Shown: piece after piece, positions 43,443-60,297 of the stretch | Layout of the letters: each line of letters begins with the position of its first letter | Numbering within the stretch: position 1 is the stretch's first letter | From: Chitinophagales bacterium | GTDB lineage: Bacteria > Bacteroidota > Bacteroidia > Chitinophagales > JADIYW01 | Length of the DNA: 64,000 bases | NCBI GenBank assembly: GCA_023957245.1 | Contig: JAMLHJ010000015.1 | Span: 4,542-68,541 of the forward strand | Direction of reading: 5' to 3' | The notes under the pieces: model-generated | What the model saw: the letters and a program-made list of their open reading frames with translations, nothing else | What the model was told of the DNA's origin: nothing | Database searches by the model: none | Position numbers and translations under genes: made by a program

Positions 43443-43540
43443 TTCTATTTTTTGTCTCAACAAAAAGGAATGTAGCAGATATACAGCGAGTGCAACCACT
43501 TCATCCCCTTTGCCTCGAAAGTTCCGAATTTATTGTGCTC

Positions 43541-43700
43541 ATGGCAGGTCTTCTGACTTGTTTCCTTCTTGACACCTTCCCGCAAAAAGCAGTGGTATAT
43601 CGTCAAAAAGTATAAAAACTTACAGCAGCGAGGACTGTCCCGGACTTGCACCGGAGTTCCCTTTTAATTTTCTATTTTTTACAAATAGAATAACCATTTT
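43541..43700 (-). promoter_or_regulatory. Cobalamin riboswitch
   Basis: Minus strand GGTT...AAAAGGGAACTCCGGTGCAAGTCCGGGACAGTCCTCGCTGCTGTAA...CCACTG...GGGAAGG...AAGTCAGAAGACCTGCC (B12 box). Confidence 0.95.
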
Positions 43701-43991
43701 GCATGGCAAAGATATACTTTATTCTACAATACTTTTCTTTAAAATGGAAAATAAATTTTATTGCAATAAGCAATTGACAATTAAATATATATACAAATTA
43801 AATCAAAAGGTAAATAATAAAAAATACAAATAACTTAATAATAAGCTTGCGCAATTCAAATAACTATTCTACTGCGTAATACAAATAAACTTTTCAAACC
43901 TCACAATAAGTCAATGCATTTTTTTATAATTTTTACTTCATTACATAGATTGGCAATAGTTTATAATCTTTCAAAAATAGTTATAGAAATT

Positions 43992-44022: not shown

Positions 44023-44040
44023 AGAGTTACAAGCAAGCCT
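44011..44040 (+). mobile_element. attI-like recombination half-site at the head of the array
   Basis: TGCGTATATTTGAGA-GTTACAAGCAAGCCT; GTTACAAGC..GCCT is complementary to the left arm AGGC..GCTTGTAAC of the site at 57046; no partner hairpin arm upstream. Confidence 0.65.
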
Positions 44041-44244
44041 AAAAGACGACACAACGACCTTCAACAAGACATCCAAAAAATCGACTTTTGAAATCCTTAC
44101 CAGAATTTTCAGTCGACCTTAACTCGACAGACAATTTCGCTGTACCTTGACACAGTACAACAGACCAACTTGGCGACACACAAGCTGACCCAAGAAAAAA
44201 TAAAACACCCCACCGCACAAAAAAATGAATTTCTGCCACCTCAT

Positions 44245-44309
44245 AAGTGGCACATTTGGCTTTGCCCTGCCCACAATCCGACCCTTCTGCAATGCCAAAA
44301 GAGCCACTT
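44245..44309. repeat. Hairpin with ACATTTG/CAAAAGAG core, left of the R-M/CBASS operon
   Basis: AAGTGGC-ACATTTG-GC...GC-CAAAAGA-GCCACTT. Confidence 0.6.
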
Positions 44310-44389
44310 TTACCCTACGCACAAAAGGCAGTACAGACGAAGCAACTTCAATTTGTAGAACCCCTACTTAAAATTATTTTAATAAAAAG

Positions 44390-44420
44390 TTTGGTAATAA
44401 GAAAACTTTACCTACTTTTG
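44390..44420 (+). promoter_or_regulatory. Promoter of the R-M/CBASS operon
   Basis: TTTG (44390-44393), 19-nt spacer, TACTTTTG (44413-44420), ending 24 nt before the first gene. Confidence 0.65.
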
Positions 44421-44444
44421 TAGCATCATTACAAAGGAATAAAT

Positions 44445-45002
44445 TTGAACACACTAATAAAAGATATCACAAACATCCAAACCGGACTCTTTGCAAAGCC
44501 CGCTGGCTTTGGCGAATTGGTGTATCTACAGTCTAAGCATTTTGACGAATTCGGACAGTTACATTCAATTCTTCACCCCGATTTGCCGACTGAGGGGATT
44601 TCTGAAAAGCACTTGCTAAAAGACGGTGATGTGCTTTTTGCGGCTAAAGGAACCAAAAACTTTGCAGCCGTTTTTGAAAACCACAACGAACCATCTGTGG
44701 CCTCCACTTCATTTTTTGTTATCAGACCAACAGACAACAAAGTGTTGCCTCAGTTTCTGGCTTGGTTTCTAAATAGCCATACCACACAAACCCTTTTAAA
44801 AGGACAAGCCATTGGCACTTCTATCCCTTCTATCTCAAAACAGGTTTTAGAGAATTTGGAAATACCAGTTCCAGATATTAAAACGCAAATGGCAATTGTA
44901 GAAATTTCAAAACTCCGCAACAAAGAAAAATCCTTGAAGCAGAAAATTGAAGCACTCAGAGAAAAACAAATTCAACAACAAATAATCAACGCAATAAAAT
45001 AA
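44445..45002 (+). CDS. hsdS: Half-size type I R-M specificity subunit (single TRD)
   Basis: LKDGDVLFAAKG, FLAWFLNS, GTSIPSISKQVLENLEIPVP..Q and a C-terminal helix; TTG start. Confidence 0.8.
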   Translation: MNTLIKDITNIQTGLFAKPAGFGELVYLQSKHFDEFGQLHSILHPDLPTEGISEKHLLKDGDVLFAAKGTKNFAAVFENHNEPSVASTSFFVIRPTDNKVLPQFLAWFLNSHTTQTLLKGQAIGTSIPSISKQVLENLEIPVPDIKTQMAIVEISKLRNKEKSLKQKIEALREKQIQQQIINAIK

Positions 45003-45007
45003 ATATC

Positions 45008-46570
45008 ATGGCTAAAATAACTCAGAAAGACATCAACGATGCAGTTTGGAAAGCTTGCGACACCTTTAGAGGCAGCATTGACCCAAGCGTTTACAAAGAC
45101 TATGTGCTTACTATGCTGTTCCTAAAATATCTCAGCGATGTGCATGACGATAAAATGGAAGGCTACTTAGCCAAATACAACGGTGATGTGGAACGTGCCA
45201 AACGTGCCATGCAACACGAACGCTTTATTGTGCCGGAGCATAGCCATTTTAAATATTTATACGACCACCGCAATGAAGCCAATATTGGTGAACTTATCAA
45301 TATTGCTTTGACTGATTTGGAAGAAGCAAACCGTGAGAAACTATACAGCGAAGACGGTGCAGGGATATTCCAAAATATAGACTTTAACAGCAGTAAGTTG
45401 GGTGAGCCAAAGGATAAAAACACCCGATTGAAAACCTTGCTGATTGACTTCAAATCCGACAAGCTGGATTTACGACCTTCTCATTTAGATGGTAATGACA
45501 TTATTGGCGGGGCTTACATGTTCCTGATTGAAAATTTTGCCAGTGATGCCGGAAAAAAAGCAGGTGAATTTTTTACGCCAAAAGAAGTTTCTACGCTTAT
45601 TGCTAAACTCACCAAAAGCAAACCCGGTTCACGTATTAGTGATCCAACTTGTGGTTCTGCTTCTCTTTTAATTAAAGCAGGTGAAGAAGTGGGTTCAGAT
45701 AATTTTTCATTGTACGGACAAGAAGCCAACGGTAGTACCTGGGCTTTGGCAGTAATGAATATGTTTTTGCATGGTTTCGATAATGCTACTATCCGCTGGG
45801 GCGATACTATCCGCAATCCCAAACTGAAAGAAGGTGATACCTTGATGAAGTTTGATACCGTTGTGGCAAACCCGCCATTCTCTTTAGACAAATGGGGAAA
45901 GGTAGAAGACAAGGATGGTGAAAAAACTACTGTGAGCTACGACCCTGAAAGCGATAAATACAACCGCTTTTGGAGAGGTGTGCCACCCAAAAGTAAAGGC
46001 GACTGGGCATTTATAAGCCACATGATAGAAACGCTGAACGAACATGGCAAAGCAGGTGTGGTTGTGCCGCATGGCGTATTGTTCCGTGGTAGCAGCGAAG
46101 GTCGCATACGCCAACGCACCATAGAAGAAAACCTGCTCGAAGCAGTAATTGGCTTGCCTGCAAATCTGTTTTTTGGTACAGGTATTCCGGCTGCTATTCT
46201 CATTTTCAACAAGCAAAAAAACAGCAACAATGTATTGTTTATTGATGCCAGCAAACACTACGAAAGTGCCAAAAACCAAAACAAGCTGCGTGAAAGCGAT
46301 ATTGAACACATTGTAACAACCTATCGTGATTTTGCAGCCGGCAAACTGCAACCCGGTGTGGTGGAAGACAAATACAGCTATGTAGCCACTCCCGAAGAAA
46401 TACAGGAAAACGACTTTAACCTGAACATCCCCCGCTATGTGGACACCTTTGAAGAAGAAGCAGAAGTGGACATTGCTGCAGTGCAGAAGGAGATTGAAAA
46501 ATTAGAAGATGAATTAAAAACGGTGCAGGCTGAAATGGATAAATACCTAAAACAATTAAATGCTATTTAA
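45008..46570 (+). CDS. hsdM: Type I R-M methyltransferase
   Basis: VWKACDTFRG, GEFFTP, DPTCGS, VANPPF, NLNIPRYVD. Confidence 0.96.
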   Translation: MAKITQKDINDAVWKACDTFRGSIDPSVYKDYVLTMLFLKYLSDVHDDKMEGYLAKYNGDVERAKRAMQHERFIVPEHSHFKYLYDHRNEANIGELINIALTDLEEANREKLYSEDGAGIFQNIDFNSSKLGEPKDKNTRLKTLLIDFKSDKLDLRPSHLDGNDIIGGAYMFLIENFASDAGKKAGEFFTPKEVSTLIAKLTKSKPGSRISDPTCGSASLLIKAGEEVGSDNFSLYGQEANGSTWALAVMNMFLHGFDNATIRWGDTIRNPKLKEGDTLMKFDTVVANPPFSLDKWGKVEDKDGEKTTVSYDPESDKYNRFWRGVPPKSKGDWAFISHMIETLNEHGKAGVVVPHGVLFRGSSEGRIRQRTIEENLLEAVIGLPANLFFGTGIPAAILIFNKQKNSNNVLFIDASKHYESAKNQNKLRESDIEHIVTTYRDFAAGKLQPGVVEDKYSYVATPEEIQENDFNLNIPRYVDTFEEEAEVDIAAVQKEIEKLEDELKTVQAEMDKYLKQLNAI

Positions 46571-46572
46571 TT

Positions 46573-47802
46573 ATGCTTACAAAAGAACAAAAACAACAAT
46601 TCAGCGATATTCTGGAAGAGTTAGGAAAGACGCTTGACATTCCAGAAACGCAATACGAAGCAGCCGTTAAAAGCTACGAAGCTGTTGGCAATTGGCTTGC
46701 AAAAGAGGATTCCACACTTGCACCTTACTCGCCTGAAATATTGCCACAAGGCTCATTCATGTTGGGTACAATGGTTAAGCCAATCAATGATAAGGACGAT
46801 TTAGATATTGATCTTGTATGCCAATTGAAAGGTAAAAATCCTGACTGGACACAGGAGGATTTAAAACATAAAGTAGGCGACCGATTAAAAGCACACGGAA
46901 CCTATAAAGAGATGCTTGATGAAGAAGGAAGGCGATGCTGGACTTTGGTTTATTCTGATGATGCAAATTATCACATGGACATTCTCCCTTCCATTGTTGA
47001 CAAAGGCTACAGAATGATTTTAGAAAAGGCCTTCTCTGATACTGAACTAAAGGATATTGAGAAACTTGGCATTCGCATAACCGATAATCAAACAGACAAC
47101 TATGAATGGGAAACCGATCATTTAGAATGGCTAAAGAGTAACCCTTTCGGTTATGGTCGTTGGTTTTTTCAGCAAGCAACTCTTGATTTCAAGAAATCAT
47201 TTTCTCTGAATGAATCAATAGCACCTGTGCCTAAATACAAAAAGGAAAAACTTCCCTTACAACGAGTAGTTCAAATTCTAAAAAGGCACAGAGATATGCT
47301 ATTTAATGGAAATGAGCACAAGCCAATATCCATTATCATCACAACCCTTGCTTCAAAAGCCTACAACAAGGAAACAGATATTATAGAGGCACTAATTAAT
47401 GTGGTTAACACCATGGAAAACTACATTGAAGAACGCTGGTCAGATGAACATGGTAAAAGGATAAAGTGGATTTCAAACCCTGTTAATGATGAAGAAAATT
47501 TTGCTGATAAATGGCAGGAATATCCGCAACGTGAAAAGAATTTTTACCACTGGCTTAGTGAAGTAAAGAAAGACCTGAACAACATAATTGGTCAAAGCGG
47601 AAAGGGTTTACAGTTCATCAATGAATCAATGATGAAGCGATTTGGTAAAGATGCAGTTACCAAAGCATTCAGTAGTTATGGTGAAAAATATTTAAAGCAA
47701 CGTGAAAGTGGTGCAATGAAAATGGCAGCAGGAACAGGAATGCTTGGTGAAACCGGAAGAACTTCTGTCCCCCAACACAAACCTTTTGGTAAGAATGAGT
47801 AG
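46573..47802 (+). CDS. cGAS/DncV-like nucleotidyltransferase (CBASS CD-NTase)
   Basis: PQGSFMLGT...DDLDIDLV, HMDILP, SNPFGY, VQILKRHRD, KPISIIITTL, NPVNDEENFADKW; tail HKPFGKNE. Confidence 0.92.
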   Translation: MLTKEQKQQFSDILEELGKTLDIPETQYEAAVKSYEAVGNWLAKEDSTLAPYSPEILPQGSFMLGTMVKPINDKDDLDIDLVCQLKGKNPDWTQEDLKHKVGDRLKAHGTYKEMLDEEGRRCWTLVYSDDANYHMDILPSIVDKGYRMILEKAFSDTELKDIEKLGIRITDNQTDNYEWETDHLEWLKSNPFGYGRWFFQQATLDFKKSFSLNESIAPVPKYKKEKLPLQRVVQILKRHRDMLFNGNEHKPISIIITTLASKAYNKETDIIEALINVVNTMENYIEERWSDEHGKRIKWISNPVNDEENFADKWQEYPQREKNFYHWLSEVKKDLNNIIGQSGKGLQFINESMMKRFGKDAVTKAFSSYGEKYLKQRESGAMKMAAGTGMLGETGRTSVPQHKPFGKNE

Positions 47803-48268
47803 AAAGTCGCTTTTAATACAAGAAGGTACTCTAAAGTCTTATTTCCCAGGAAGTCAAATAAAACGAAAAGGGGAATCGGAACTCACATGGATTGGAGTTG
47901 TTACTCCATCTCCTCTGAGTGCTACCTATCAATTAAAGCTGCACTACAAATATAATGAGGGAGCTAAGGTATATGTAATTGACCCAAAGCCATTGAAACT
48001 GGCAGAAGGGCAAGTTGTTTTACCACACGTTTATAGTACACCAGAACAACGCCTATGTCTGTATTATCCTAAAGACAAAGAGTGGAACACAGGCATGCTT
48101 TACGTACATACATTAATCCCATGGGCTTGTGAATGGCTTTGCCATTATGAATTATGGGTGGCAACGGGGACTTGGCATGGTGGAGGAGTACATCATCCAA
48201 ATGAGGCTGAAAAACAAGCCAACAAACAAAAAGAAAAAACTAATGAAGCAAGCAGCAGCAATAAATAA
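47795..48268 (+). CDS. CBASS-associated ubiquitin E2-like protein
   Basis: LPHVY...LCLYYP...EW...IPWACEWL.HYELW..TGTWHGGG; start overlaps the CD-NTase stop. Confidence 0.8.
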   Translation: MSRKSLLIQEGTLKSYFPGSQIKRKGESELTWIGVVTPSPLSATYQLKLHYKYNEGAKVYVIDPKPLKLAEGQVVLPHVYSTPEQRLCLYYPKDKEWNTGMLYVHTLIPWACEWLCHYELWVATGTWHGGGVHHPNEAEKQANKQKEKTNEASSSNK

Positions 48269-49496
48269 AGTTAGTGGAAATAAAAAGGTTTTATTCCAGA
48301 CTGAAATCCCAAGTGAATGGGATGTTTTTGAATTGGGTCAATTGTTTGAATTCAAAAATGGAATTAATGCCGGAAAGGAAAGCTACGGAAAAGGTGTCAA
48401 GTTTATTAACGTAATGGAAGTCATTTACCATGATTTTATTACTCCTGATATGATACCCGGGACAGTCCAAATATCAGATGAGCAGAAAGAGCTATATCTT
48501 GTTAAAGACGGTGATGTTCTTTTTAACAGAACATCTGAAACAATTGAAGAAATAGGAATGTCTGCCGTTTACAATGGTAACGAAGATGTTGTATTTGGAG
48601 GCTTTGTAATTAGGGGTAGACCTATTTTAAATGCAATTGACCCTGTTTATAAAAGATATTGTCTTCGTTCAAACTTAGTAAGAAATCAAATTATTAAAGG
48701 TGGACAGGGAGCAGTGCGTACAAATATTGGTCAGGGTGATTTATCACTCGTTAAAATAGCACTCCCCCCAATTGCCGAGCAAAAAAGCATAGGCCAGATA
48801 TTGTGTACAATTGATTTGACTATACAAAAGGTAGAACAGCTTGTAAATCAAAAAGAACTCCGCAAAAAATGGCTCATGCAGGAGTTGCTTTCGGGAAAAA
48901 GAAGACTGAATAGCTTTAATGGTGAAGTAAAACCAAAAGTTGTAGGACAGTTTATTAAAGAAGTTTCTGAAAGAAATAAGGAATTTAAGGTTACCAGAGT
49001 TCTCTCTGTTACCAATTCAAGAGGATTTATAAACCAGTCTGATCAGTTTGACAGGTCGGTTGCGAGTGAAGATGCATCAAATTATAAAATTGTGCGGAAA
49101 GGGCAATTTGCATATAACCCTTCAAGGGTTAATGTTGGCTCACTTGATTTACTAAGGAATTTTGATGAAGGGATTTTGAGTCCAATGTATGTTGTTTTTT
49201 CAACAGACGAAAAACATCTACTTGCTGACTTCCTATACTTTCATCTAAAAACACAATGGTTTTATGGTCATATTCCAATGTTCGTTCAAGGGAGCGTTAG
49301 AGATAGTTTATCATTTGAAGGACTTTGCTCAATGAAGTTTTTTATTCCAACCACAGAAGAGCAAAAAGCCATTGTTAAAGTGCTGCAAGCCGCAGATAAA
49401 GAAATATCACTTCTGAAATTGAAAGCTGAAAAACTGCGAGAAAAGAAAAAAGGCTTAATGCAGCAATTATTAACAGGAAAAATTAGGGTCAAATGA
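48243..49496 (+). CDS. hsdS: Type I R-M specificity subunit (two TRDs)
   Basis: EIPSEW, ALPPIAEQ, KKWLMQELLSGK, PTTEEQKAI, KKGLMQQLLTGK. Confidence 0.93.
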   Translation: MKQAAAINKVSGNKKVLFQTEIPSEWDVFELGQLFEFKNGINAGKESYGKGVKFINVMEVIYHDFITPDMIPGTVQISDEQKELYLVKDGDVLFNRTSETIEEIGMSAVYNGNEDVVFGGFVIRGRPILNAIDPVYKRYCLRSNLVRNQIIKGGQGAVRTNIGQGDLSLVKIALPPIAEQKSIGQILCTIDLTIQKVEQLVNQKELRKKWLMQELLSGKRRLNSFNGEVKPKVVGQFIKEVSERNKEFKVTRVLSVTNSRGFINQSDQFDRSVASEDASNYKIVRKGQFAYNPSRVNVGSLDLLRNFDEGILSPMYVVFSTDEKHLLADFLYFHLKTQWFYGHIPMFVQGSVRDSLSFEGLCSMKFFIPTTEEQKAIVKVLQAADKEISLLKLKAEKLREKKKGLMQQLLTGKIRVK

Positions 49497-50620
49497 GTGT
49501 AACAAATATTTCATCAGCAAATAGATACATTTTATGGGGTAAAGCTGCAGGAAGGTGCCAATACAGAGGATGTAACAAACCTTTGTTCGTGGATGCACTT
49601 ACAAAGAGTGAATTTAACCAAGCATATATAGCTCATATTGTTGCAGACGTGCCTGGTGGCCCTAGAGGAGATTCGGTTAGATCTGAATTGTTAAAAGACG
49701 ACATTTCTAATCTTATGCTTCTATGTGATGAACATCATAGACTAATTGATAAAAAGGATGTTGCAGGTCATCCTGAATCATTACTGTTAGTAATGAAAAA
49801 GGAACATGAAGATAGAATTGAAAAAGTAGCTTCAATCAATCCAAACATGCAAAGCCACATTGTTACTTACAAGGCAAATGTTGGCATTCATACTCCTGCT
49901 ATCTCCTACGAATCGGTTCGTGAATTCCTGTTGCCTTCACATTATCCGGCACAGTCACAGGCAATAGATTTAAGTTTGAGCAATAGCCCTCAGCGTGACA
50001 AAGACGCAAGCTTTTGGGCAACAGAATTAGAGAATCTTGAGAGTCAGTTTAATGAACAATTAAGGATAAAGTTTAGGAAAGGAGAAATCAATCATCTTTC
50101 CGTGTTTGCATTTGCCCCAATGCCTTTGCTCATAAGGCTTGGCACGCTTATAAATGATATTCAGCATGCTGAGATTCACCAGCCTGTAAGAGATCCAAAA
50201 ACATGGAATTTAGATGATGATGCAACTGAAACACTGTATAAAGTCATTGAGCCGACTGAAACGTTTCCAATAGTTGCCTTAAACATCTCATTAAGCGCTA
50301 CAATCAACAATGATCGAATCACTTCAGTTTTAGGAAGCGATTGTTCCATTTACACCCTAACTATTGATGCACCGTTCAATGACTTTTTAAAGTCTAAAAA
50401 ACAGCTTCAGGATTTTAGTATGGAAATGAGAAAGCTGCTGAATTATATTAAATCAAAGTGCGATGCTCAAACCCCACTGCACGTTTTTCCGGCCATGCCC
50501 ATTGCTACAGCAATTGAATTTGGCAGGGTTTGGATGCCAAAAGCAGATATGACTTTGCACATCTATGATGAGAACACAGCCAATAGTGGTTTTTTCAAAG
50601 CATTAGAAATAACAAATTAG
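49493..50620 (+). CDS. cap5: HNH-SAVED nuclease effector (Cap5-like)
   Basis: AAGRCQYRGC, AHIVA..GPRG, NLMLLCDEHHRLID HNH; SAVED motifs HLSVFAFAPMPLLIRLG and HVFPAMP. Confidence 0.88.
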   Translation: MSVTNISSANRYILWGKAAGRCQYRGCNKPLFVDALTKSEFNQAYIAHIVADVPGGPRGDSVRSELLKDDISNLMLLCDEHHRLIDKKDVAGHPESLLLVMKKEHEDRIEKVASINPNMQSHIVTYKANVGIHTPAISYESVREFLLPSHYPAQSQAIDLSLSNSPQRDKDASFWATELENLESQFNEQLRIKFRKGEINHLSVFAFAPMPLLIRLGTLINDIQHAEIHQPVRDPKTWNLDDDATETLYKVIEPTETFPIVALNISLSATINNDRITSVLGSDCSIYTLTIDAPFNDFLKSKKQLQDFSMEMRKLLNYIKSKCDAQTPLHVFPAMPIATAIEFGRVWMPKADMTLHIYDENTANSGFFKALEITN

Positions 50621-50625
50621 AAAAT

Positions 50626-50865
50626 ATGGCACGAAAAGAAAGACATGTAGTTCCCAATTCTGAAAAAGGCGGTTGGGATTCGAAACGAGAAAATGCAGAA
50701 AGGGTTTCCAAGCATTTTGAAACCAAAAAGGAAGCTATGGACTGGAGCCGAGAAAAATCAAAACAGGAAAAGTCTGAATTGATTCCACATGGAAAAGATG
50801 GAAAGATTCAGAATCCAAACAGTTATGGAAATGATCCCAATCCGCCAAAAGATAAAAAGAGATAA
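50626..50865 (+). CDS. DUF2188-family small protein
   Basis: HVVPN..GGW, F.TKKEA, ELIPHGKDGKIQ..NSYGNDP.PPKD. Confidence 0.85.
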   Translation: MARKERHVVPNSEKGGWDSKRENAERVSKHFETKKEAMDWSREKSKQEKSELIPHGKDGKIQNPNSYGNDPNPPKDKKR

Positions 50866-50923
50866 TAAAGCAAAATCCGCACAATAAAGTGGATGGCTTT
50901 ATTGTGCAAAAACAGAATATAAA

Positions 50924-52615
50924 ATGCTTATGACCATAGCAGAACTAAAACAGCTTAAAGAAAGCGAAGATAAAGTAGAGTTTAAAGAGGCAAAAAATCA
51001 ATACGCCTACAACAGCAGCCGCAAGAGTGTGCTGGGCTACACCGTAGCATTTGCCAATGAAAAAGGTGGTTATTTGGTATTTGGGTTGGAAGATGCACAC
51101 CCACACACGGTTTGTGGCTCAAAAGCTTATGAAGGTAGAGAAGGTCAATTGGAGCAAGATGTTTACCGTGATACCGGAGTAAGAATACAAACAGAAGTTT
51201 TGTTTGAGGGAACGAATCGGGTGTTGGTTATAAAAATTCCATCTCGTCCCGTAGGTAAACCACTTTATTTTAATGATGTGCCATTGATGAGGGTTGGTGA
51301 TGGTTTGGATAGAATGTCGGAAGAAATGTATCTCTCCATCATCCAGGAACAAGAACCCGACTTCTCTGCCAAATTTTGCGAAGGCATCAGCATTGCTGAT
51401 TTGGATGAAATGGCCATCAAAAAAATGAAAGAGAGCTATGCCCGCAAACAAAAGAATCCGGGCTTTTTGCAACTTAGCACCGAGCAGGTTTTAACAGATT
51501 TAAAATTACAAGACAATGGTAAGCTCACCTATGCCGCCTTGGTTTTATTGGCTAAAAAAGAAGTAATTCATGCTAAACTACCCCAAAGCAAAACTATTTG
51601 GGAATTTCGCAACAGCGAAGCACAAATACACCACGATAGCCGTGAGGTAATTGATGAACCTTTATTTATTGCCATTGACAGCATTTGGAAACTCATCAAT
51701 CAACCGACACTCAATAAAAAATATCCGATACAGTCGGGAGCTTACATTTTCGATTTGTATGATTTTAACGAAGAGGTAATTCGTGAAGCCGTTCTCAATG
51801 CCATTGCTCACAGGGATTATACCATTACCAGCGAAGCGGTTATAAAACAATATCCCAACAAAATTATCATTACCAACCCGGGTGGTTTCCCTAAAGGCGT
51901 AACAATAGAAAATATTCTTACAGTGAGCAGCACACCCAGAAGCCGCTTAATGACAGAAATTTTGGAAAAGACCGGGTTGGTGGAACGCAGTGGTCAGGGT
52001 GTAGATAAGATATTCTCCATCACCCTATCCGAAGGCAAAGCCGAACCTGACTATAAAAATTCAGATATGTTTCAAGTTTCGCTAATTCTGAAGACTGAAA
52101 TTATTGACAAGGCATTTCACGTATTCATAAGCCAATACCAAAACAGCGAGAAAGAGCCAAAATTGGGTGTAGAGCAAATCATTACGCTTTGCAAAATACG
52201 GAACGGCATATTCCAAAACCTTAAAACCGAAATTGCAAGTCAGTTAGAAAAATCAGGTTTAATTGAAAAAATTTCTGGACATACCAACCGATATACATTG
52301 TCGCAAGAATACCATGCACTGGTAAATGACGGTTTAAAAATTGGTAAAAGGTATTTGGTAAAAGAGATAGAACTCATACTTCTGGCATTGCAAGGAAATG
52401 CTTTGAAGATTGGCGATTTAGAAGATTTATTGAAAGAATCCCTATCAAGAAATCAGATAAACTATTTAAAGATGAAATTGATGGAAGATGAAGTGCTGAA
52501 AGTAGAAGGAAAAATTAAAGGAGCCAGGTATTCTATTGCTGATAAGTATGCTGATTTGAGAGGTGATGTTTTACTAAGTGCAGTTATTGCAGAACTAAGA
52601 GGTAAATATGAATAA
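50924..52615 (+). CDS. AlbA_2/Schlafen-like domain + HATPase-like putative regulator
   Basis: ESEDKVEFKEA, AFANEKGG.LVFG, REAVLNAIAHRDY, NPGGFP, VERSGQGVDKI. Confidence 0.85.
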   Translation: MLMTIAELKQLKESEDKVEFKEAKNQYAYNSSRKSVLGYTVAFANEKGGYLVFGLEDAHPHTVCGSKAYEGREGQLEQDVYRDTGVRIQTEVLFEGTNRVLVIKIPSRPVGKPLYFNDVPLMRVGDGLDRMSEEMYLSIIQEQEPDFSAKFCEGISIADLDEMAIKKMKESYARKQKNPGFLQLSTEQVLTDLKLQDNGKLTYAALVLLAKKEVIHAKLPQSKTIWEFRNSEAQIHHDSREVIDEPLFIAIDSIWKLINQPTLNKKYPIQSGAYIFDLYDFNEEVIREAVLNAIAHRDYTITSEAVIKQYPNKIIITNPGGFPKGVTIENILTVSSTPRSRLMTEILEKTGLVERSGQGVDKIFSITLSEGKAEPDYKNSDMFQVSLILKTEIIDKAFHVFISQYQNSEKEPKLGVEQIITLCKIRNGIFQNLKTEIASQLEKSGLIEKISGHTNRYTLSQEYHALVNDGLKIGKRYLVKEIELILLALQGNALKIGDLEDLLKESLSRNQINYLKMKLMEDEVLKVEGKIKGARYSIADKYADLRGDVLLSAVIAELRGKYE

Positions 52616-52892
52616 GCAGCTAATTGTTTATATGCCGTTAATGATTCTCTGTATGCTAAAGATAAAAGAGCTAAAGAAGATGATGAAAGGGATGGTACTA
52701 TTCTTTGTATTGCAGCTACTAGAGATAGTGCTAGCAACATACAAATGTTTAAACGTGCTGTATATCAACACTTTAGAGTGTTATTTGCCTGAGCTTCAAT
52801 TCTCTGTATCGGGCTCCGGATTCTTTGTATTGGCTCCGGAACCGGGCAAATTCAATTCTCTGTATCGGGCATCCGGTTCTCTAAAAAAGTAG
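52608..52892 (+). other. Doubtful short ORF containing five ATTCTYTGTAT motifs
   Basis: Motif at 52644, 52700, 52799, 52820 and 52855; no recognisable protein. Confidence 0.35.
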
Positions 52893-52898
52893 AAAATA

Positions 52899-55800
52899 AT
52901 GGACACACCAAGTTTTAAAGAAGACCATATCAGCCAGATTCCGGCATTACAAATGTTGGTGAATTTGGGTTATACCTATTTAAGTCCGGCAGAATCCGAC
53001 AGGCAAAGAGGTGGCAAAACTACCAATGTATTGCTGGAAGACGTATTGCGGAAACAGTTGAAGGAAATCAATAGCATACGGGTAAGTGCTACCAAAACCA
53101 GCATTTTTACAGATGAGAATATTGAGCGGGGAATTTTGGCTTTGAAAAACCTACCCATGAATGAAGGCTACATTGCAGCCAGTGAAAAAGCATACAACCT
53201 GCTCACCTTGGGTCAGGCATTGGAGCAAAGTGTAGATGGCGACAAAAAGAGTTTCACCCTTCAATACATAGACTGGAAAAACATCAACAACAATGTATTT
53301 CACGTAACAGAAGAATACAGCGTAATGCGAAGCACCAGCAAAGAGCATTACCGCCCCGATTTGGTGTTGTTTGTAAATGGTATTCCACTTTGCATCATCG
53401 AGTGCAAGCGACCTGACATGAAGGAGCCGTTGAAACAGGCTATCAGTCAGCATTTGCGTAATCAGCAAGAAGATGGCATCCGTAGTTTGTATGTTTATTC
53501 GCAACTCACATTAAGCATCGCTACACAAGAAGCCGCTTATGCAACCAACGCCACACCCGAAAAGTTTTGGGCAAAGTGGAAAGAGAAATTCGGAAATGAT
53601 GAAGAAGAACGCAGCTACAAAAACAAATTACAGGAACTGAAAAACAAACCGCTTCCGATTTCTATAAAAGAACAATTGTTTTCTGACCGTTTCAAATATG
53701 TTCGGCAATATTTTGACGCTTTAGAACAGGAAGAAATTCTGCCAACCGAGCAGGACAATTATTTGTTTGGTTTGTGTCGCCCGGAGCGATTGATGGACAT
53801 TGTTTTCAATTACGTTTTGTTTGACAATGGAGAAAAGAAAGTAGCCCGCTACCAGCAGTTTTTTGCCATCAAAAAATCCATGCAACGCATCAAAAATGTA
53901 GAGAATGGAAAACGAAAAGGAGGCGTAATCTGGCATACACAAGGAAGCGGAAAATCGTTGACAATGGTGATGTTGGCACAAGCCATTGCCATGGAACCAA
54001 GTATTCGCAATCCCAAAATTGTTTTGGTAACAGATAGAACCGATTTAGATAATCAAATTACCAGCACGTTCAGAAAGTGTGGCAAGTTTGTAGAAAACGC
54101 TACTACTGGGCAACGCTTGGTAGAATTACTGGAAAGCAAAAGCGATGCAGTGGTTACCACCATCATCAACAAGTTTGTGGCAGCAGTAAAGAAAATCAAT
54201 CAACCCTTAGAAAGCCACGACATTTTTGTTCTGGTAGATGAAGGTCACCGAACACAACACGGAACTTTCAATGTGGACATGCAGAAAACATTGCCAAATG
54301 CCTGTTTCATTGCCATGACCGGTACACCCCTTTTCAAGAAAGACAAAAGCACAGCAGCAAAATTTGGTGGTGTTATTGATGCTTACACCGTTGACCAGGC
54401 AGTAAAAGACAAAGCAGTTGTTCCATTGTTGTATGAAGGTCGTTTGGCATTGCAAGATGTAAATGCCAGTCCGATCGATACATTCTTTGGAATGGTTTCA
54501 GAACCATTAACCGAATATCAAAAAGCAGACATCAAGAAAAAGTTTGCCCGATACGACCATTTGAATTCTGCCGAGCAAAAAATGAGAATGATTGCATGGG
54601 ACATCAGCTATCATTTCCGTGACAACTGGCAAGGCAAAACACCATTTAAAGGTCAGTTGGTTTGCGATAAAAAGGTGAATGCGATTAAATACAAAGAGTA
54701 TTTGGATGAAATAGGCATTGTAAGCAGCGAAGTTTTGATATCATCCATTGATGAACTAGAGGGTGAAGAAAGTGCTTATGAAAAGTCACTTGAAAAGGTG
54801 AATCAGTTTTGGAAAAAGATGATGGACGAACATGGCAATTCAAAAAGCTATGAAAAGAACATCATCAGCCGTTTTAAAAACCAAAAAGACCCGGAAATAA
54901 TTATTGTAGTTGACAAATTGCTTACAGGCTTTGACGAACCCAAAAACACAGTTCTATACCTCACAAGAAATTTACAAAGTCACAAACTCTTACAAGCCAT
55001 TGCAAGGGTAAACCGAATTTATCCTGATAAGGAGTTCGGGTACATCATTGACTATTATGGTGTGATTGAAAATTTGGATGATGCTTTGCAGATGTATTCT
55101 TCATTTGAAGATTTTGATGAAGAAGATTTGGCAGGAACACTTACCAATATTTCGGAAGAAATTAAAAAACTACCGCAAAAGCACTCAGACCTTTGGGATA
55201 TTTTCAAAACCATAGCCAACAAACGAGATGCAGAAGCCTATCAGCAATTATTGAAAGATGAAGCAATAAGAGTTTTGTTTTACGATAAACTGGCTGCATT
55301 TGCTAAGGGATTAAAACTGGCACTATCCTCAATTCAATTTCATAAGGAAGTAGAAGAAAAAGTAATTAATCGTTACAAAGAAGATTTGACGATGTTTTTA
55401 AAATTGCGTTTGGCTGTTGTTGAACGCTACAGCGATGAGATTGACTACAAACAATACGAAGGGCAAATTCAAAAACTAATTGACACACACATTACCACAG
55501 AGAAAATTGAAACCATCACAGAATTGGTAAACATTTTCGACAAGGACAAATTTCAGCAAGAAGTAGAAAATACAACGGGAAAAGCAGCAAAAGCGGACAA
55601 GATTGCCAGCAGAACAGCCAAGCATATTACCGAGAAAATGGATGAAGACCCTGCTTTTTACAAGAAGTTTTCGCAAATGCTTAGAGAGACGATTGCTGAC
55701 TATGAAGCAAAACGAATCAGTGAAGCACAATACTTGAGCAGAGTTCAAGACATCATGAACAATGTACTAGCTCATACCGTCAATGACATTCCTGAGCAAT

Positions 55801-56126
55801 TGAAAGACAGAGATGTTGCCAAAGCTTTTTATGGTTTGACAGTGGAGGCATTATCTGAAAAAATTCAAGACAATATTATTCGTAAAGAAGTCGCAACACA
55901 TACGGCTTTGCAAATTGACGACCTGATTCAAGATTCTGTTTTAGACAACGGCAAAGCCATTATTGACTGGCAATACAAAACAAACATCACCGGAAAGTTA
56001 CTGATTGAAATTGGCGACTATCTGATTGATGAAGTTCGGGACAAATACAATGTGGACTTGTCATTTAAAGACATGGACAAGATTGCCGAAGATTGTATTG
56101 AAGTAGCTAAAATCCGTTACAAGTGA
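52899..56126 (+). CDS. hsdR: Type I R-M restriction subunit
   Basis: RPDLVLFVNGIPL.IIECK, WHTQGSGKS, DEGHR, TGTP, LLTGFD, QAIARVNR. Confidence 0.96.
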   Translation: MDTPSFKEDHISQIPALQMLVNLGYTYLSPAESDRQRGGKTTNVLLEDVLRKQLKEINSIRVSATKTSIFTDENIERGILALKNLPMNEGYIAASEKAYNLLTLGQALEQSVDGDKKSFTLQYIDWKNINNNVFHVTEEYSVMRSTSKEHYRPDLVLFVNGIPLCIIECKRPDMKEPLKQAISQHLRNQQEDGIRSLYVYSQLTLSIATQEAAYATNATPEKFWAKWKEKFGNDEEERSYKNKLQELKNKPLPISIKEQLFSDRFKYVRQYFDALEQEEILPTEQDNYLFGLCRPERLMDIVFNYVLFDNGEKKVARYQQFFAIKKSMQRIKNVENGKRKGGVIWHTQGSGKSLTMVMLAQAIAMEPSIRNPKIVLVTDRTDLDNQITSTFRKCGKFVENATTGQRLVELLESKSDAVVTTIINKFVAAVKKINQPLESHDIFVLVDEGHRTQHGTFNVDMQKTLPNACFIAMTGTPLFKKDKSTAAKFGGVIDAYTVDQAVKDKAVVPLLYEGRLALQDVNASPIDTFFGMVSEPLTEYQKADIKKKFARYDHLNSAEQKMRMIAWDISYHFRDNWQGKTPFKGQLVCDKKVNAIKYKEYLDEIGIVSSEVLISSIDELEGEESAYEKSLEKVNQFWKKMMDEHGNSKSYEKNIISRFKNQKDPEIIIVVDKLLTGFDEPKNTVLYLTRNLQSHKLLQAIARVNRIYPDKEFGYIIDYYGVIENLDDALQMYSSFEDFDEEDLAGTLTNISEEIKKLPQKHSDLWDIFKTIANKRDAEAYQQLLKDEAIRVLFYDKLAAFAKGLKLALSSIQFHKEVEEKVINRYKEDLTMFLKLRLAVVERYSDEIDYKQYEGQIQKLIDTHITTEKIETITELVNIFDKDKFQQEVENTTGKAAKADKIASRTAKHITEKMDEDPAFYKKFSQMLRETIADYEAKRISEAQYLSRVQDIMNNVLAHTVNDIPEQLKDRDVAKAFYGLTVEALSEKIQDNIIRKEVATHTALQIDDLIQDSVLDNGKAIIDWQYKTNITGKLLIEIGDYLIDEVRDKYNVDLSFKDMDKIAEDCIEVAKIRYK

Positions 56127-56821
56127 TGACAGCAGCTATACAATTTGGAAGCAGAACAATAGATTTTCGTTTGGAGTATTCAGACAGAAAATCGCTTGGC
56201 ATTACAGTAACACCCGAAATGGAAGTTTTGGTAAAAGCACCGACAGACACGACCATAGAAAAAGTGAAAGAGAAAATTAGAAAAAAAGCAACTTGGATTA
56301 TTAAACAGCAAAGCTTCTTTCTGTCCTTTCAACCAAAGACACCAAAACGAAAATACATAAGCGGGGAAACACATTTGTATTTAGGCAGACAGTACCGTTT
56401 ACTAATAGTAATAGGTAAAGAAGAATCCGTAAAATTAAAAGGCAAATTCATTGAAGTAACAGCCCATAATAAATCAAGAGCAAAGGACTTATTAGATAAT
56501 TGGTATTTGCAACATGCACGGACAAAGTTTCATGCAATTGCAGCACCCCTAATTGACAAATTCAAAAAGCATAAAGTTGAACCAAGTTCTATTGTGTTGC
56601 GTGACATGCCGACACGTTGGGGAAGTTGCACACCAAAAGGAAAAATCATTTTAAATCCGGAATTAATAAAAGCACCAAAAGGATGCATTGAATATGTGAT
56701 TATACATGAACTTTGCCATTTAATACATCACGACCACACTCAGAAATTTATAGATTTACAGACTAAGGAAATGAAAGACTGGGAAAAGTGGAAAATGAAA
56801 TTGGAGAAATTATTAGCATGA
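56123..56821 (+). CDS. M48/YgjP(DUF45)-family metal-dependent hydrolase
   Basis: RWGSC, YVIIHELCHL...H; commonly follows hsdR. Confidence 0.88.
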   Translation: MMTAAIQFGSRTIDFRLEYSDRKSLGITVTPEMEVLVKAPTDTTIEKVKEKIRKKATWIIKQQSFFLSFQPKTPKRKYISGETHLYLGRQYRLLIVIGKEESVKLKGKFIEVTAHNKSRAKDLLDNWYLQHARTKFHAIAAPLIDKFKKHKVEPSSIVLRDMPTRWGSCTPKGKIILNPELIKAPKGCIEYVIIHELCHLIHHDHTQKFIDLQTKEMKDWEKWKMKLEKLLA

Positions 56822-56834
56822 GAAGCCTACACAC

Positions 56835-56903
56835 AAAAGCACACACATTTGCAAGCCGCACAAGCCCAAGCACAGACCAAAGCTTGCAAAAGAGTGTGCT
56901 TTT
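56835..56903. repeat. Hairpin with ACATTTG/CAAAAGAG core, right of the R-M/CBASS operon
   Basis: AAAAGCACAC-ACATTTG-CAAGC...GCTTG-CAAAAGA-GTGTGCTTTT. Confidence 0.6.
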
Positions 56904-57045
56904 CACCAACCCAAAAAGAAATTCATTTTTTTCTTCCCACCCTTCGGTGTTTTATTTTTTCGCCACCCACAACCGACACAAAAACAGTTGGACGGAGACA
57001 GCGAAAACCTTTACTGAGCAAGGCTTGACAATGACGGAAGACAGA

Positions 57046-57196
57046 AGGCCAGCTTGTAACATGGGTTTGGCGTCATGCGGGGTGAAGTGCTTAAATTCAA
57101 GTGTAGTTTTTCAAATCAACTTTAGTGCAAGGTTGACAATTTTTTGCCCTGAAATCCCGCACGAACGCCAAGCCCAAAAACGTTGTGCCTCATGCT
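57046..57196 (+). mobile_element. attC-like site 1
   Basis: Left GCTTGTAAC; inner arms GGGTTTGGCGT.ATGCGGG / CCCGCA..AACGCCAAGCCC; right GTTGTGCCT at 57182. Confidence 0.8.
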
Positions 57197-57232
57197 AAAA
57201 AACAACCAGACACCTAATAGAAATTGAAAGAA

Positions 57233-58468
57233 ATGGAAAAAATATGTTTTGTGATTATGGGTTATGGTAAAAAGACCGACCCGACACTAGGGAAAACCTA
57301 CGACCTTGACGCAACATATCATCGTATAATTAAGCCTGCGGTTGTAAAGGCAGGCTATACTTGCATAAGAGGTGATGAAATTCTAGAATCGGGAATTATT
57401 GACAAAAGCATGTATGCTCTGCTTATTAGAGCAGATTTAGTTATTGCAGACATAACTACATTTAACCCAAATGCAATTTACGAACTTGGCATTCGACACG
57501 CTGCAAGACCCTACTCTACAATTGTAATGAAAGAAAAAGATGGCAATATACCATTTGACATAAATCATAATAAAACGTTTACATACGCTCATATGGGGGA
57601 AGACATAGGGGCATCAGAAGCTGAAAGATGTGTAACACACTTAAGCAGTTTAATTCTCGAAATAGATAAAGCTAAAGAAACAGACAGCCCGCTTTTTCAC
57701 CATATTAGAGGTGTTGAACCATATACATTACCCGAAGATGAGTATGTTCAAATTATAAAAGATTTAGCATCTAAAGAGAAAAGCATTTTCGCCCTTGTTG
57801 AGAAAGCCAAGATAGAAATGAAAAATGGAAACTTTGCAGAGGCGTCTAAAATGTGGAGAAAGCTAACAGAGAAAGTCGAAAGTGATACTTATTTTATCCA
57901 ACAATGGGCTCTATGTACATATAAAGACAAAACTGTCAATCCAAAAGTGGCATTGAATGATGCACTTACTATCATAAGTAGATTAGAACCCGAGAACCGA
58001 AACACTACAGACCCTGAAACTTTGGGTATAACAGGAGCTATTTATAAGCGACTTTGGCAAAATGACATAGAAGTAATTGAATATCTTGATAGAGCAATCG
58101 AATATTATAAAAGAGGATTCTCAATAAATCAAGATTATTATACAGGAGAAAACTATGCACTTTGCCTAGACTTCAAATCAGAAATTACATCTGATTCAGA
58201 TGAAAAAATATATTTAAAAGTAGAGGCTAAAAAGACCAGAAAAGAAATCATAAACATTATTGAAAAACTCAGTGATGACGAGGATTTTGAGATAAGAAGT
58301 GATTTAAAATGGATTTTTGCAACATTAGCGAATTGTCATCTTGCCCTAGACAATGTTGACCTGTTTGAGAAGTATAAATCCTTATTTGAAAACTGTCACC
58401 CTGAGGCATGGGAAATGGAAACTTTTCAAGATTCCGTGAAACACATTAATCAATTAAATTCAAAATAA
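57233..58468 (+). CDS. Deoxyribosyltransferase-like N-terminal domain + TPR protein (DUF4071/ASK1 N-terminus-like)
   Basis: CFVIMGYG, RGDE, ADLVIADITTFNPNAIYELGIRHA, IPFDI; TPR region with DPETLGITGAIYKR and YYTGENYA. Confidence 0.75.
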   Translation: MEKICFVIMGYGKKTDPTLGKTYDLDATYHRIIKPAVVKAGYTCIRGDEILESGIIDKSMYALLIRADLVIADITTFNPNAIYELGIRHAARPYSTIVMKEKDGNIPFDINHNKTFTYAHMGEDIGASEAERCVTHLSSLILEIDKAKETDSPLFHHIRGVEPYTLPEDEYVQIIKDLASKEKSIFALVEKAKIEMKNGNFAEASKMWRKLTEKVESDTYFIQQWALCTYKDKTVNPKVALNDALTIISRLEPENRNTTDPETLGITGAIYKRLWQNDIEVIEYLDRAIEYYKRGFSINQDYYTGENYALCLDFKSEITSDSDEKIYLKVEAKKTRKEIINIIEKLSDDEDFEIRSDLKWIFATLANCHLALDNVDLFEKYKSLFENCHPEAWEMETFQDSVKHINQLNSK

Positions 58469-58469
58469 A

Positions 58470-58874
58470 ATGGCAAAAGAGTTTAAAATTTTCATTAGCC
58501 ATTCATGGGCACATAGTGATGACCTTGAAGCTTTACAAAACTTACTTAACGCACGCGGCTACTTTAATGTAGAATTTCTAGAAGCGTCAAAGAAAGTTCC
58601 AATCAACTCTGAGAATGCAACTTATGTGAAATCAGTACTTAGAGATAGAATTCGAAATTCCAATATCATTTTGGCACTAGCAGGCATTTACGCATCACAT
58701 AGCGAATGGATGATTTGGGAACTTGAAACTGCACAATCTTATGGAATCCCGATTGTAGGAGTAATTCCCAGAGGACAAGAAAGAATTTCGACAGAAGTTT
58801 ATTCAAGGTCTAAAATTGATGTCCGTTGGAATACTGAAAGCATTGTACAAGCAATTAGAACATATGCTATATAA
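58470..58874 (+). CDS. TIR-domain protein (ThsB/DUF1863-like)
   Basis: IFISHSW, SEWMIWELETA (catalytic Glu), PIVGVIP.G, VRWNTESIV.AI. Confidence 0.85.
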   Translation: MAKEFKIFISHSWAHSDDLEALQNLLNARGYFNVEFLEASKKVPINSENATYVKSVLRDRIRNSNIILALAGIYASHSEWMIWELETAQSYGIPIVGVIPRGQERISTEVYSRSKIDVRWNTESIVQAIRTYAI

Positions 58875-59025: not shown

Positions 59026-59183
59026 ATGAAACATAGCGGTCAGACAAGAGAACCACCAAAGACAAGTATTCTCGACAGTTCTTAACGGACTTCGACATAT
59101 TATTATCGTGGAGACCAGCGACCACAAAAAAACGGGGCGGACACCGAAAAGCCAAACGAGTAGGAAACAAAATTTTATATATA

Positions 59184-60097: not shown

Positions 60098-60114
60098 CAA
60101 TGAAGAACGAAAGA

Positions 60115-60262
60115 AAACCAGCCCATAACAGCACCTACCCAAAAGTGGCGGTTCAGTGGTTAAATCAAGCTTTATGCTTCTATCAAAGTTTGTGCTTGGT
60201 TGACAGTAAAATGCTTCGAATTCGCCACCTTCGGGTAGCTGCGAACCGTTATAGCCAATAGC
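60115..60262 (+). mobile_element. attC-like site 3
   Basis: Left GCCCATAAC; inner arms GCACCTACCC..AAGTGGCG / CGCCACCTTCGGGTAGCTGC; right GTTATAGCC at 60248. Confidence 0.85.
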
Positions 60263-60297
60263 TGGACAAACGCACCGCAAAAATACTATCGACAGAA

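Follow-up and report, generated by a model that had tools for sequence, protein, structure and literature searches.

A CBASS divided by hsdS within a two-slot type I restriction-modification unit of Bacteroidota

We analyzed a 64,000-nucleotide stretch of DNA (the window, to which all positions refer unless a related locus is named) from a Chitinophagales bacterium (contig JAMLHJ010000015.1 of assembly GCA_023957245.1), in which the genes of an antiphage system that signals through cyclic oligonucleotides (CBASS) are interleaved with those of a type I restriction-modification (R-M) operon. It was found that a CdnG-like cyclase and its E2 partner occupy the interval between hsdM and hsdS (slot A), while the effector lies in the interval between hsdS and hsdR (slot B); both intervals are variable in cargo among related loci. 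At least 31 further loci carry the same order of cyclase-E2, hsdS, and effector. The locus probably joins an ordinary E2-type CBASS, the sensor and effector halves of which sit in separately exchangeable cassettes, to co-expressed type I R-M genes. The carrier is a widespread, horizontally moving Bacteroidota type I R-M unit of approximately 13 kb with two cargo slots. Such a layout, in which one R-M chassis carries the sensor and killing halves in two separately exchangeable cassettes, could let bacteria mix cyclases, E2s, specificity domains, and effectors while keeping both systems.

Gene calls were taken from the list of open reading frames (ORFs), and families were assigned from Pfam, PADLOC, and NCBIfam scans. 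The locus extends from 44445 to 56821 with all genes on the + strand, in the order half-hsdS, hsdM, CdnG-like CD-NTase (a nucleotidyltransferase of the cGAS and DncV kind; the cyclase), E2, hsdS, Cap5 (HNH-SAVED), DUF2188, AlbA_2/HATPase_c_4, orf94, hsdR, and YgjP-like peptidase (Table 1). Every ORF is full length with a strong family match. Junctions across the locus are gaps of 2-6 nt or overlaps, with a single 58-nt gap as the sole exception. An earlier note on this DNA had proposed this gene order, these identities, and tight junctions (2 nt between hsdM and the CD-NTase, and overlaps at CD-NTase/E2, E2/hsdS, and hsdS/effector), all of which were borne out by the ORF list, the scans, and the junctions read in the sequence. 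Two details are amended: the gene it labeled M48 does encode a metallopeptidase, of Pfam family YgjP-like PF01863, and orf94 (52608-52892), between the AlbA gene and hsdR, was missing from its gene list.

The cyclase matched solved clade G enzymes in the PDB (9woo_A, 1.7e-61; SmCdnG 8hsb_A, 2.4e-39). In an alignment of 33 sequences, residues G60, S61, D78, D80, and D136 were invariant, and we take these to be the catalytic GS and DxD...D residues of the CD-NTase family. A C-terminal H-x-[FP]-[FYH]-G motif followed by 0-5 residues was present in all full-length rows among 78 cyclases, with G406 invariant. The E2 matched the Serratia E2 (8hsb_B, 2e-16), its RLCLYYP aligning to RLCLFLP; Cys88 was invariant in the 33 sequences and aligned to the cysteine motif of 8hsb_B, and the C-terminal tail is lysine-rich. 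The E2 frame is open from TTG 47744, and the model match starts near ATG 47795. No E1 or JAB family match was found among the locus proteins in the Pfam and PADLOC scans. Having the catalytic cyclase residues, a single E2 with its cysteine, the C-terminal glycine of the cyclase, and a SAVED-HNH effector, these genes are predicted to constitute a type II-short CBASS, one that departs from the contiguity of such systems in that hsdS stands between E2 and Cap5, here and in the 31 other loci. The R-M genes are likewise those expected of a type I system, with a visible NPPF motif in HsdM, two target recognition domains (TRDs) in HsdS, and a nuclease N-terminal domain, SF2 motor, and C-terminal domain in HsdR.

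In the Serratia E2-CBASS, the E2 is reported to be covalently linked to the C-terminus of CdnG, with the C-terminal glycine as the ligation residue and K159 of the SmE2 tail as the isopeptide acceptor for the cyclase (PMC12948482). It was noted that three related loci (L-numbers label the loci compared with the window locus) contain a cyclase ORF of 511-519 aa that abuts hsdS or lies at most 9 nt from it, without a separate E2 (L164, 6159-7718; L168, 6217-7752; L050, 4060-5601). These may be natural cyclase-E2 fusions, for which PADLOC has a model (PDLC00816), or frameshift artefacts.

The neighborhoods of cyclase relatives were surveyed as the earlier note had suggested, and the interleaving proved to be recurrent, and not the one-off among homologs that would have counted against the note's reading. 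A cyclase search with one genome per species returned 264 relatives, the best 80 of which were fetched with the window proteins mapped on all of their ORFs; the loci derive mostly from metagenome bins. Among these best 80, we found 24 unique loci with the order half-hsdS, hsdM, cyclase(-E2), hsdS. One more split locus (L117) came from a search with hsdM, and six (L163, L164, L167, L168, L169, and L171) from a search with the second cyclase of the relatives (CDN2). By taxonomic label, 28 of the 31 belong to Bacteroidota (four named classes) and one to Chlorobiota, and two are in bins labeled Gammaproteobacteria and Saccharimonadota, on 6- and 14-kb contigs. Four cultured strains carry the same order, namely Arcicella rigui KCTC 23307, Flavobacterium luteum NBRC 112527, Lacibacter cauensis CGMCC 1.7271, and Flavobacterium psychraquaticum LB-N7 (L067, L079, L163, L164). 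In the remainder of the best 80 other than L071, no backbone lies 5' of the cyclase, and the genes are arranged as Cap5-cyclase-E2, cyclase-E2-Cap5, or cyclase-E2 with another neighbor. Altogether, 51 of 78 related cyclases had no type I R-M backbone upstream. One backbone, L071, holds Cap5-cyclase-E2 together in slot A.

We then considered how the two halves are paired in a sample picked by hsdM alone, comprising 80 fetched loci, 60 of which showed both hsdS and hsdR in full. Slot B contained a CBASS effector (Cap5 or patatin) in 9/9 backbones with cyclase-E2 in slot A, versus 0/51 of the others (Fisher exact test; p = 6.8e-11). Of the 28 split loci in which at least one gene is visible 3' of hsdS, 27 carry Cap5 or patatin in that place, and in most cases the effector gene adjoins the hsdS stop codon or overlaps it; the exception, L080, has a Metallophos-STAND protein at that position, where the contig ends. 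The effector is the first or nearly the first slot B gene throughout the split sub-family, being Cap5 in the window and a patatin phospholipase in most relatives. Its recurrence in 31 loci and the absolute pairing in the hsdM-picked sample exceed what chance would give.

In most cases, a second, shorter cyclase comes after patatin, and L033 shows cyclase-E2, hsdS, and patatin without one. In relatives, slot B contains patatin, this second cyclase (approximately 319 aa), and often a 253-aa GGDEF-domain protein, as in L003 (13037-15774). An unbroken patatin-cyclase-E2-cyclase(-GGDEF) block was encountered in L172 (7541-11637), L162 (2429-5851), and L166 (7468-11734). The second cyclase was seen solely beside E2-type CBASS (17/17 loci, 16 of them in the R-M backbone). 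Two or three cyclases per effector are present in such loci.

The fixed parts of the unit are a leader, half-hsdS, hsdM, hsdS, hsdR, the YgjP-like peptidase gene, and a right flank. HsdM was 83-97% identical across the 80 hsdM-fetched loci, all of which shared the frame half-hsdS, hsdM, hsdS, hsdR, peptidase. Slot A was closed (-3 to +7 nt) in 20 of the 60 complete backbones and otherwise contained an AlbA-type ATPase, Fic, Metallophos with two further genes, cyclase-E2, or unnamed inserts; slot B measured at least 1091 nt in these backbones. DUF3800 was also found among the slot cargo. Cargo genes matched models of known or candidate defense systems, including SoFic, PDC-S04, PDC-M04A/B, PDC-S06, PDC-S16, PDC-S31, PDC-S60, Tin, and CBASS phospholipase and cyclase, and the same cargo was able to occupy either slot. 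The DUF2188 gene of the window recurs in slot B of many CBASS-free backbones. The pair of AlbA gene and orf94 is found in slot B with and without CBASS, and the AlbA gene is also found in slot A.

Short repeats were noted around slot B. Inside orf94, just 5' of hsdR, there is a 30-nt direct repeat (52795-52824 and 52851-52880; 87% identical, 56 nt apart). Approximately the first 80 nt of hsdR are copied 5' of the slot B cargo in L081 (11739-11822) and L099 (16573-16654), and small hsdR-like ORFs are present in L091, L095, L126, and L144. The short hsdR-start copies resemble a scar left where cassettes were inserted by recombination at the start of hsdR.

Comparison of single loci with the window revealed mixed ancestry along the unit. 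L040 is 92% identical in hsdM, 61% in the cyclase, 69% in E2, 92% in Cap5, 92% in DUF2188, 93% in AlbA, and 92% in hsdR. The corresponding values are 93% for the cyclase, 70% for E2, and 94% for Cap5 in L001; 88% for the cyclase and 54% for Cap5 in L006; and 97% for hsdM, 62% for the cyclase, and 97% for hsdR in L034. The type of cyclase tail tracks the E2 type and not the cyclase body. Conservation of hsdS in its central and terminal segments only is a further sign of exchange. The backbone, cyclase, E2, hsdS TRDs, and effector thus reassort independently.

A quick maximum-likelihood tree of 78 cyclases, including 25 embedded rows, placed the embedded cyclases in at least four groups between stand-alone groups. 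Effector type was scattered over the tree, and Cap5 and patatin alternate within the tight cyclase group of the window itself. A single embedded clade was rejected at a cost of 210 log-likelihood units (approximately unbiased test set up after the tree was seen; p-AU 0.0003), with at least seven state changes required. For slot-A cyclases, the ratio of nonsynonymous to synonymous substitution (dN/dS) was 0.02-0.15 at dS of 0.26-2.8, including pairs in which both members have patatin and no Cap5. The slot-A cyclase is thus under strong purifying selection even where Cap5 has been replaced, and it is therefore a working gene independent of Cap5. Most simply, it serves whichever effector follows hsdS.

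The junction of E2 and hsdS contains a conserved DNA element spanning the E2 tail and the hsdS start (Table 1). All of its matches lie at E2/hsdS junctions, with none in CBASS-free backbones. Third codon positions vary freely just 5' of the element, whereas the element and the hsdS ATG do not. We read this as one original joining of E2 to hsdS, followed by exchange of alleles with other loci, stand-alone CBASS included. The C-terminal tail of the embedded E2 was also considered as a docking peptide for Hsd subunits; this was set aside, as the SmE2 tail is reported to carry the acceptor lysine (PMC12948482) and part of the DNA conservation fits the start of hsdS.

At the left end of the unit, homology in at least nine relatives begins sharply at approximately 44024-44031 and runs to the start of half-hsdS at 74-87% identity, the flank to the left being unrelated. 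To the right, homology past the peptidase gene extends for 160-366 nt in several loci (366 nt at 88.5% in L092; 250 nt at 94% in L082 and L094). Of 40 relatives of the genome of the window, just one had a match to the cyclase, and a distant one, which marks the locus as accessory. When plasmids were searched with the cyclase, only relatives below 40% identity were returned. The sharp left edge and the right-flank homology, together with the single matched relative, therefore define the unit as an accessory, mobile chassis.

The leader of approximately 420 nt contains a conserved palindrome of about 21 pairs near 44245-44309 and could be an operator or an insulator. One-base indels among relatives speak against a coding gene, and none of 66 predicted pairs covaries, for which reason a structured RNA was also rejected. 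The right flank contains an inverted repeat (56835-56903), and an ORF across its start (56788-57198) had no family match in Pfam or PADLOC. It was noted that the leader (44194-44234) and the right flank (56917-56961) resemble each other weakly in inverted orientation (78% across 45 nt; E = 5e-4 within the window), through perfect 15-nt and 13-nt blocks around a differing middle; these may be ends of a mobile unit or shared binding sites. The stretch 56822-57223 reached a summed contig depth of up to about 718 in wastewater and sludge runs, with many loose ends at 56840-56900, and a variant without 56840-56984 occurred in two RNA-library runs. It looks like a common repeated element.

Co-expression of the locus was assessed through motif scans and metagenome contigs of relatives at 90-99% identity. 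For promoters, we scanned with TTTG..TAnnTTTG, a motif which we take to be the Bacteroidetes consensus. Matches occurred at 44390-44420 and 44417-44447, just 5' of half-hsdS, with no other from 44.4 to 59.7 kb (59721). A sigma-70 scan of the window was at background (44 versus 43.1 expected), and that consensus is invalid in this phylum. Terminator-like sites numbered 21 versus 12.8 expected, with no clear + strand terminator inside the operon. One 2387-nt metatranscriptome contig of a relative (96% identity) begins in the end of hsdM, spans the cyclase and E2, and reaches into hsdS, with a different first TRD in hsdS, and provides a faint hint of co-transcription. The earlier note had called the hybrid co-translated. 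What can be retained of this is that co-expression is plausible, because the genes overlap, a lone promoter motif precedes half-hsdS, and an RNA-library contig bridges hsdM, cyclase, E2, and hsdS.

If the locus is an ordinary CBASS co-expressed with R-M, one promoter 5' of half-hsdS would drive all genes, and translation of hsdS and Cap5 would be coupled to the preceding gene. R-M would act first, cutting unmethylated DNA. The CBASS would work as in stand-alone systems, with E2 holding the cyclase via its C-terminal glycine, and a phage cue such as prohead-protease cleavage would switch the cyclase on. This cue is suggested by a Cap2/Cap3 operon of E. coli, the clade G cyclase of which is reported in a preprint to be activated, independently of R-M, by a phage prohead protease cutting its central loop (PMC12991175). 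The resulting cyclic dinucleotide would activate Cap5, leading to DNA degradation and aborted infection. The split would play no mechanistic part in sensing; it would keep both systems co-inherited and co-expressed, and the conserved hsd flanks would let sensor and effector cassettes swap independently.

We next considered whether the CBASS monitors the R-M complex, as the earlier note had suggested it may. The cyclase-E2 would then be checked by or conjugated to HsdM or HsdS, and a block by a phage anti-restriction protein such as Ocr or ArdA would cause the cyclase to fire and Cap5 to abort the infection. The PrrC precedent invoked for this is real, as is Ronin; these and EcoR22I are described as R-M-linked abortive effectors released by anti-restriction proteins (bioRxiv 10.1101/2023.04.06.535777), and the effector genes are here embedded among hsd genes as theirs are. 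The conserved, overlapping arrangement in which cyclase-E2 immediately precedes hsdS and the effector immediately follows also fits such monitoring, as do the strict pairing of the halves across hsdS, the conserved E2/hsdS junction, and the persistence of the arrangement to synonymous saturation. Against these points stand the 51 of 78 related cyclases that lack a backbone upstream, whereas a guard of the PrrC or Ronin type would be expected to occur almost only with hsd genes, as well as the rejection of a single embedded clade (p-AU 0.0003) and the unrelated cargo found in the same slots. The variable central region, which corresponds to the loop cut in the E. coli enzyme, is alike in embedded and stand-alone cyclases, and for clade G cyclases an R-M-independent protease trigger is reported (PMC12991175). 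The lysine-rich E2 tail has a role intrinsic to E2, given the reported acceptor K159 of SmE2 (PMC12948482). Monitoring of R-M is therefore an unnecessary assumption, given the stand-alone relatives, the diverse cargo in the same slots, and the E2-intrinsic account of the conserved tail; the claim is unsupported by these results, and we consider it quite unlikely. The same doubtful standing is given to a related proposal in which the split itself is functional wiring, with HsdS or HsdM2S acting as a CBASS part, for instance as a platform that holds or receives the E2-linked cyclase, so that loss or blockade of R-M, or its engagement of DNA, controls signaling to the Cap5 or patatin encoded after hsdS. 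If true, no earlier CBASS is known to have acted as the guard of a second immune system.

It is also conceivable, and somewhat less unlikely, that the order descends from one old rearrangement (hsdS into a CBASS operon, or a CBASS around hsdS) and has been kept by block transfer with no benefit from the split itself. The shared E2/hsdS junction points to a single origin, the whole unit with its conserved ends occurs in unrelated contexts, and contiguous order evidently works: L059 has cyclase-E2-Cap5 without a backbone upstream and is nested among embedded cyclases, and L071 has a whole CBASS in slot A. However, despite many module exchanges and divergence up to dS of about 1-2, 31 loci from at least four cyclase clades retain the split order, and absolute pairing needs ongoing selection, at least on co-occurrence. 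A mis-assembly or mis-annotation, such as chimeric contigs joined via conserved hsd genes or wrong ORFs, is very improbable. The related loci are mostly metagenome bins, and hsd conservation of 83-97% could mislead assemblers, but the genome of the window, in 23 contigs, has a completeness of 100% and a contamination of 0.04%, the order is the same in four cultured strains, all ORFs are full length with strong family matches, and independent metagenome contigs bridge hsdM, cyclase, E2, and hsdS.

Several observations weigh against our preferred account of a co-expressed CBASS with exchangeable halves. Most loci come from metagenome bins in which conserved hsd genes could seed chimeric assemblies, with four cultured strains showing the same order. 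The counts behind the pairing lack phylogenetic independence. Co-transcription is argued from spacing, a promoter consensus, and one contig from an RNA library, and such libraries may hold DNA; the promoter motif is not enriched across the window (9 matches versus 6.5 expected). Patatin with the second cyclase should be self-sufficient, yet it is found in slot B only with an E2-type cyclase in slot A or adjoining in slot B. Three backbones hold a whole E2-type CBASS in one slot, namely L071 (same cyclase family, slot A) and L162 and L172 (different cyclase, slot B). If the slots reassort freely, selection has to be invoked for the pairing being absolute and for the split form being dominant (31 loci), and the account explains such selection only partly.

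The locus resembles the Serratia SmCdnG-SmE2 system (8hsb) in its long clade G-like cyclase with GS/DxD residues and C-terminal glycine, in its E2 with an invariant cysteine and a lysine-bearing C-terminal tail, and in a SAVED-HNH effector similar to solved Cap5 structures. It differs from E2-CBASS in the full hsdS between E2 and effector, in its placement as a whole inside a type I R-M operon, and in that cyclases almost identical to one another are paired with Cap5 in some loci and with patatin in others. It also shares its cyclase clade and effector family with the CdnG-Cap5 systems of Asticcacaulis, Lactococcus, and E. coli (3',2'-cGAMP), whose expected chemistry is the activation of the HNH nuclease by a cyclic dinucleotide (10.1101/2021.08.31.458341; PMC12991175). 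That near-identical cyclases occur with Cap5 or patatin suggests that one signal may be read by both, and the pairing of such cyclases with a nuclease or a phospholipase makes this one-signal-two-effectors question directly testable. The loci, four of them in cultured strains, also offer a natural, widespread test bed for whether R-M and CBASS share only a promoter or engage in real crosstalk.

The embedding of defense genes in type I R-M is described as a general rule by Payne et al. (bioRxiv 10.1101/2024.01.29.577857), and TgvAB of Vibrio cholerae VPI-2 is a reported example (PMC11411939). As in these cases, the genes are nested on the same strand between hsd genes, and the cargo varies among homologous R-M loci. 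Several cargo genes match PADLOC PDC candidates, as in the systems of Payne et al., and the PDC models are reported to derive from R-M embedding (bioRxiv 10.1101/2024.01.29.577857). Whereas the published embedded cases form one nested block, as far as those accounts describe them, a backbone gene here divides one cargo system into two separately reassorting slots. Similar to PrrC, Ronin, and EcoR22I, a suicide effector lies inside or beside type I hsd genes, as a second line of defense that would be useful if restriction is blocked. In those systems, Hsd proteins are described as holding or silencing the effector, by demonstration or by proposal, and PrrC is reported to be almost exclusively R-M-embedded (bioRxiv 10.1101/2024.01.29.577857; 10.1101/2023.04.06.535777); unlike them, the present system has its own sensor enzyme and is common as a stand-alone operon, and a link to Hsd is hypothetical. 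CBASS has no mentions in the main text of Payne et al. (bioRxiv 10.1101/2024.01.29.577857), whose supplements may list embedded cases. In an Elizabethkingia integrative and conjugative element, CBASS genes neighbor those of a type I R-M system, with no interleaving described in the available text of that report (PMC13019914). Full-text literature searches returned no report of an hsdS-divided CBASS, and older comparative papers may bear on the point. While R-M embedding of defense genes is already published, its split CBASS form is apparently undescribed in the literature searched.

Table 1. Features of the R-M unit in the window, with the gap or overlap to the next gene as read from the sequence.
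Feature	Position	Strand	Support	Junction
Conserved non-coding leader, left end of unit	44026..44444	+	Imperfect palindrome ~44245-44309; Bacteroidetes-type promoter motif 44390-44447	
Half-size HsdS, 185 aa, one TRD	44445..45002	+	Pfam Methylase_S 3.8e-12; PADLOC Specificity_I 2.5e-20	half-hsdS/hsdM, 5-nt gap
HsdM, type I m6A DNA methyltransferase	45008..46570	+	Pfam N6_Mtase 1.4e-100, HsdM_N 3.7e-24; TIGR00497 hsdM 274 bits (cut-off 242.75)	hsdM/CD-NTase, 2-nt gap
CD-NTase, clade G-like, E2-associated; slot A cargo	46573..47802	+	SMODS/DncV-like NTFase (Pfam); PADLOC cyclase PDLC00780 7e-142	CD-NTase/E2, 8-nt overlap
E2-like regulator of cyclase, CBASS type II-short; slot A cargo	47795..48268	+	PADLOC E2 4e-51	E2/hsdS, 26-nt overlap
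E2-tail/hsdS-start junction element	48209..48273	+	27-65 nt, 86-100% DNA identity in 27 matches	
Full-length HsdS, two variable TRDs	48243..49496	+	Pfam Methylase_S, 2 stretches; PADLOC Specificity_I 1.3e-81 (residues 57-455 of long frame)	hsdS/Cap5, 4-nt overlap (ATGA)
Cap5, HNH-SAVED nuclease effector; first slot B gene	49493..50620	+	Pfam SAVED 5.9e-45 and HNH_2; PADLOC endonuclease effector 5.5e-156; PDB 7rwk_A 3.7e-96	Cap5/DUF2188, 5-nt gap
DUF2188 protein, PADLOC candidate PDC-S16; slot B cargo	50626..50865	+	Pfam 1.6e-20; PADLOC PDC-S16 1.2e-31	DUF2188/AlbA, 58-nt gap with hairpin
AlbA_2/HATPase_c_4 protein (50924-52615) and orf94 (52608-52892); slot B cassette	50924..52892	+	Pfam matches	AlbA/orf94, 8-nt overlap; orf94/hsdR, 6-nt gap
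HsdR, restriction and translocase subunit	52899..56126	+	Pfam HSDR_N, SWI2_SNF2, T1R_D3-like, T1RH-like_C; TIGR00348 461 bits (cut-off 284.55); PADLOC REase_I 1.3e-219	hsdR/peptidase, 4-nt overlap
YgjP-like metallopeptidase, fixed last backbone gene	56123..56821	+	Pfam YgjP-like 3.2e-52	
Conserved non-coding right flank of unit	56822..57187	+	Follows peptidase gene in 9/11 matched loci	

Further features of the R-M genes were noted. The hsdS frame is open from GTG 48129, and the start kept in relatives is ATG 48243. Conservation of hsdS DNA is confined to a central part (48848-48936) and a C-terminal part (49355-49496), and the identity of HsdS to its relatives is 24-78%. Half-hsdS lies 5' of hsdM in every backbone locus with that region visible (30-88% identity), and the YgjP-like peptidase gene follows hsdR in nearly all backbone loci with a visible 3' end. 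Phase variation of hsdS by inversion was ruled out, as half-hsdS and hsdS share one strand and have no repeat in common other than a 21-nt direct match, which falls within a conserved motif. Every backbone encodes the half-size HsdS before hsdM plus a full HsdS; such a system might methylate two kinds of sites, one of them symmetric via a dimer of the half-size subunit.

Lastly, the surroundings of the unit within the window were characterized. Just to its left is native chromosome, with a cobalamin riboswitch at 43526-43713 (- strand; Rfam RF00174, 99.9 bits) 5' of a gene for a Plug-domain outer-membrane receptor (41568-43499, - strand). To its right, 57224-58874 (+ strand) encodes a TPR-S protein, with an N-terminal match to a TIR-effector model of PADLOC, and next to it a ThsB-like TIR protein; the two make up a separate candidate defense pair, with none seen in related backbones. 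The defense island runs on to the end of the window, with a DUF805 RNA motif at 59103-59170 (+ strand; Rfam RF03081, 70 bits) and genes for an 8xMP membrane protein and a 953-aa NERD and TBP-TOTE protein at 59519-63159 (+ strand).

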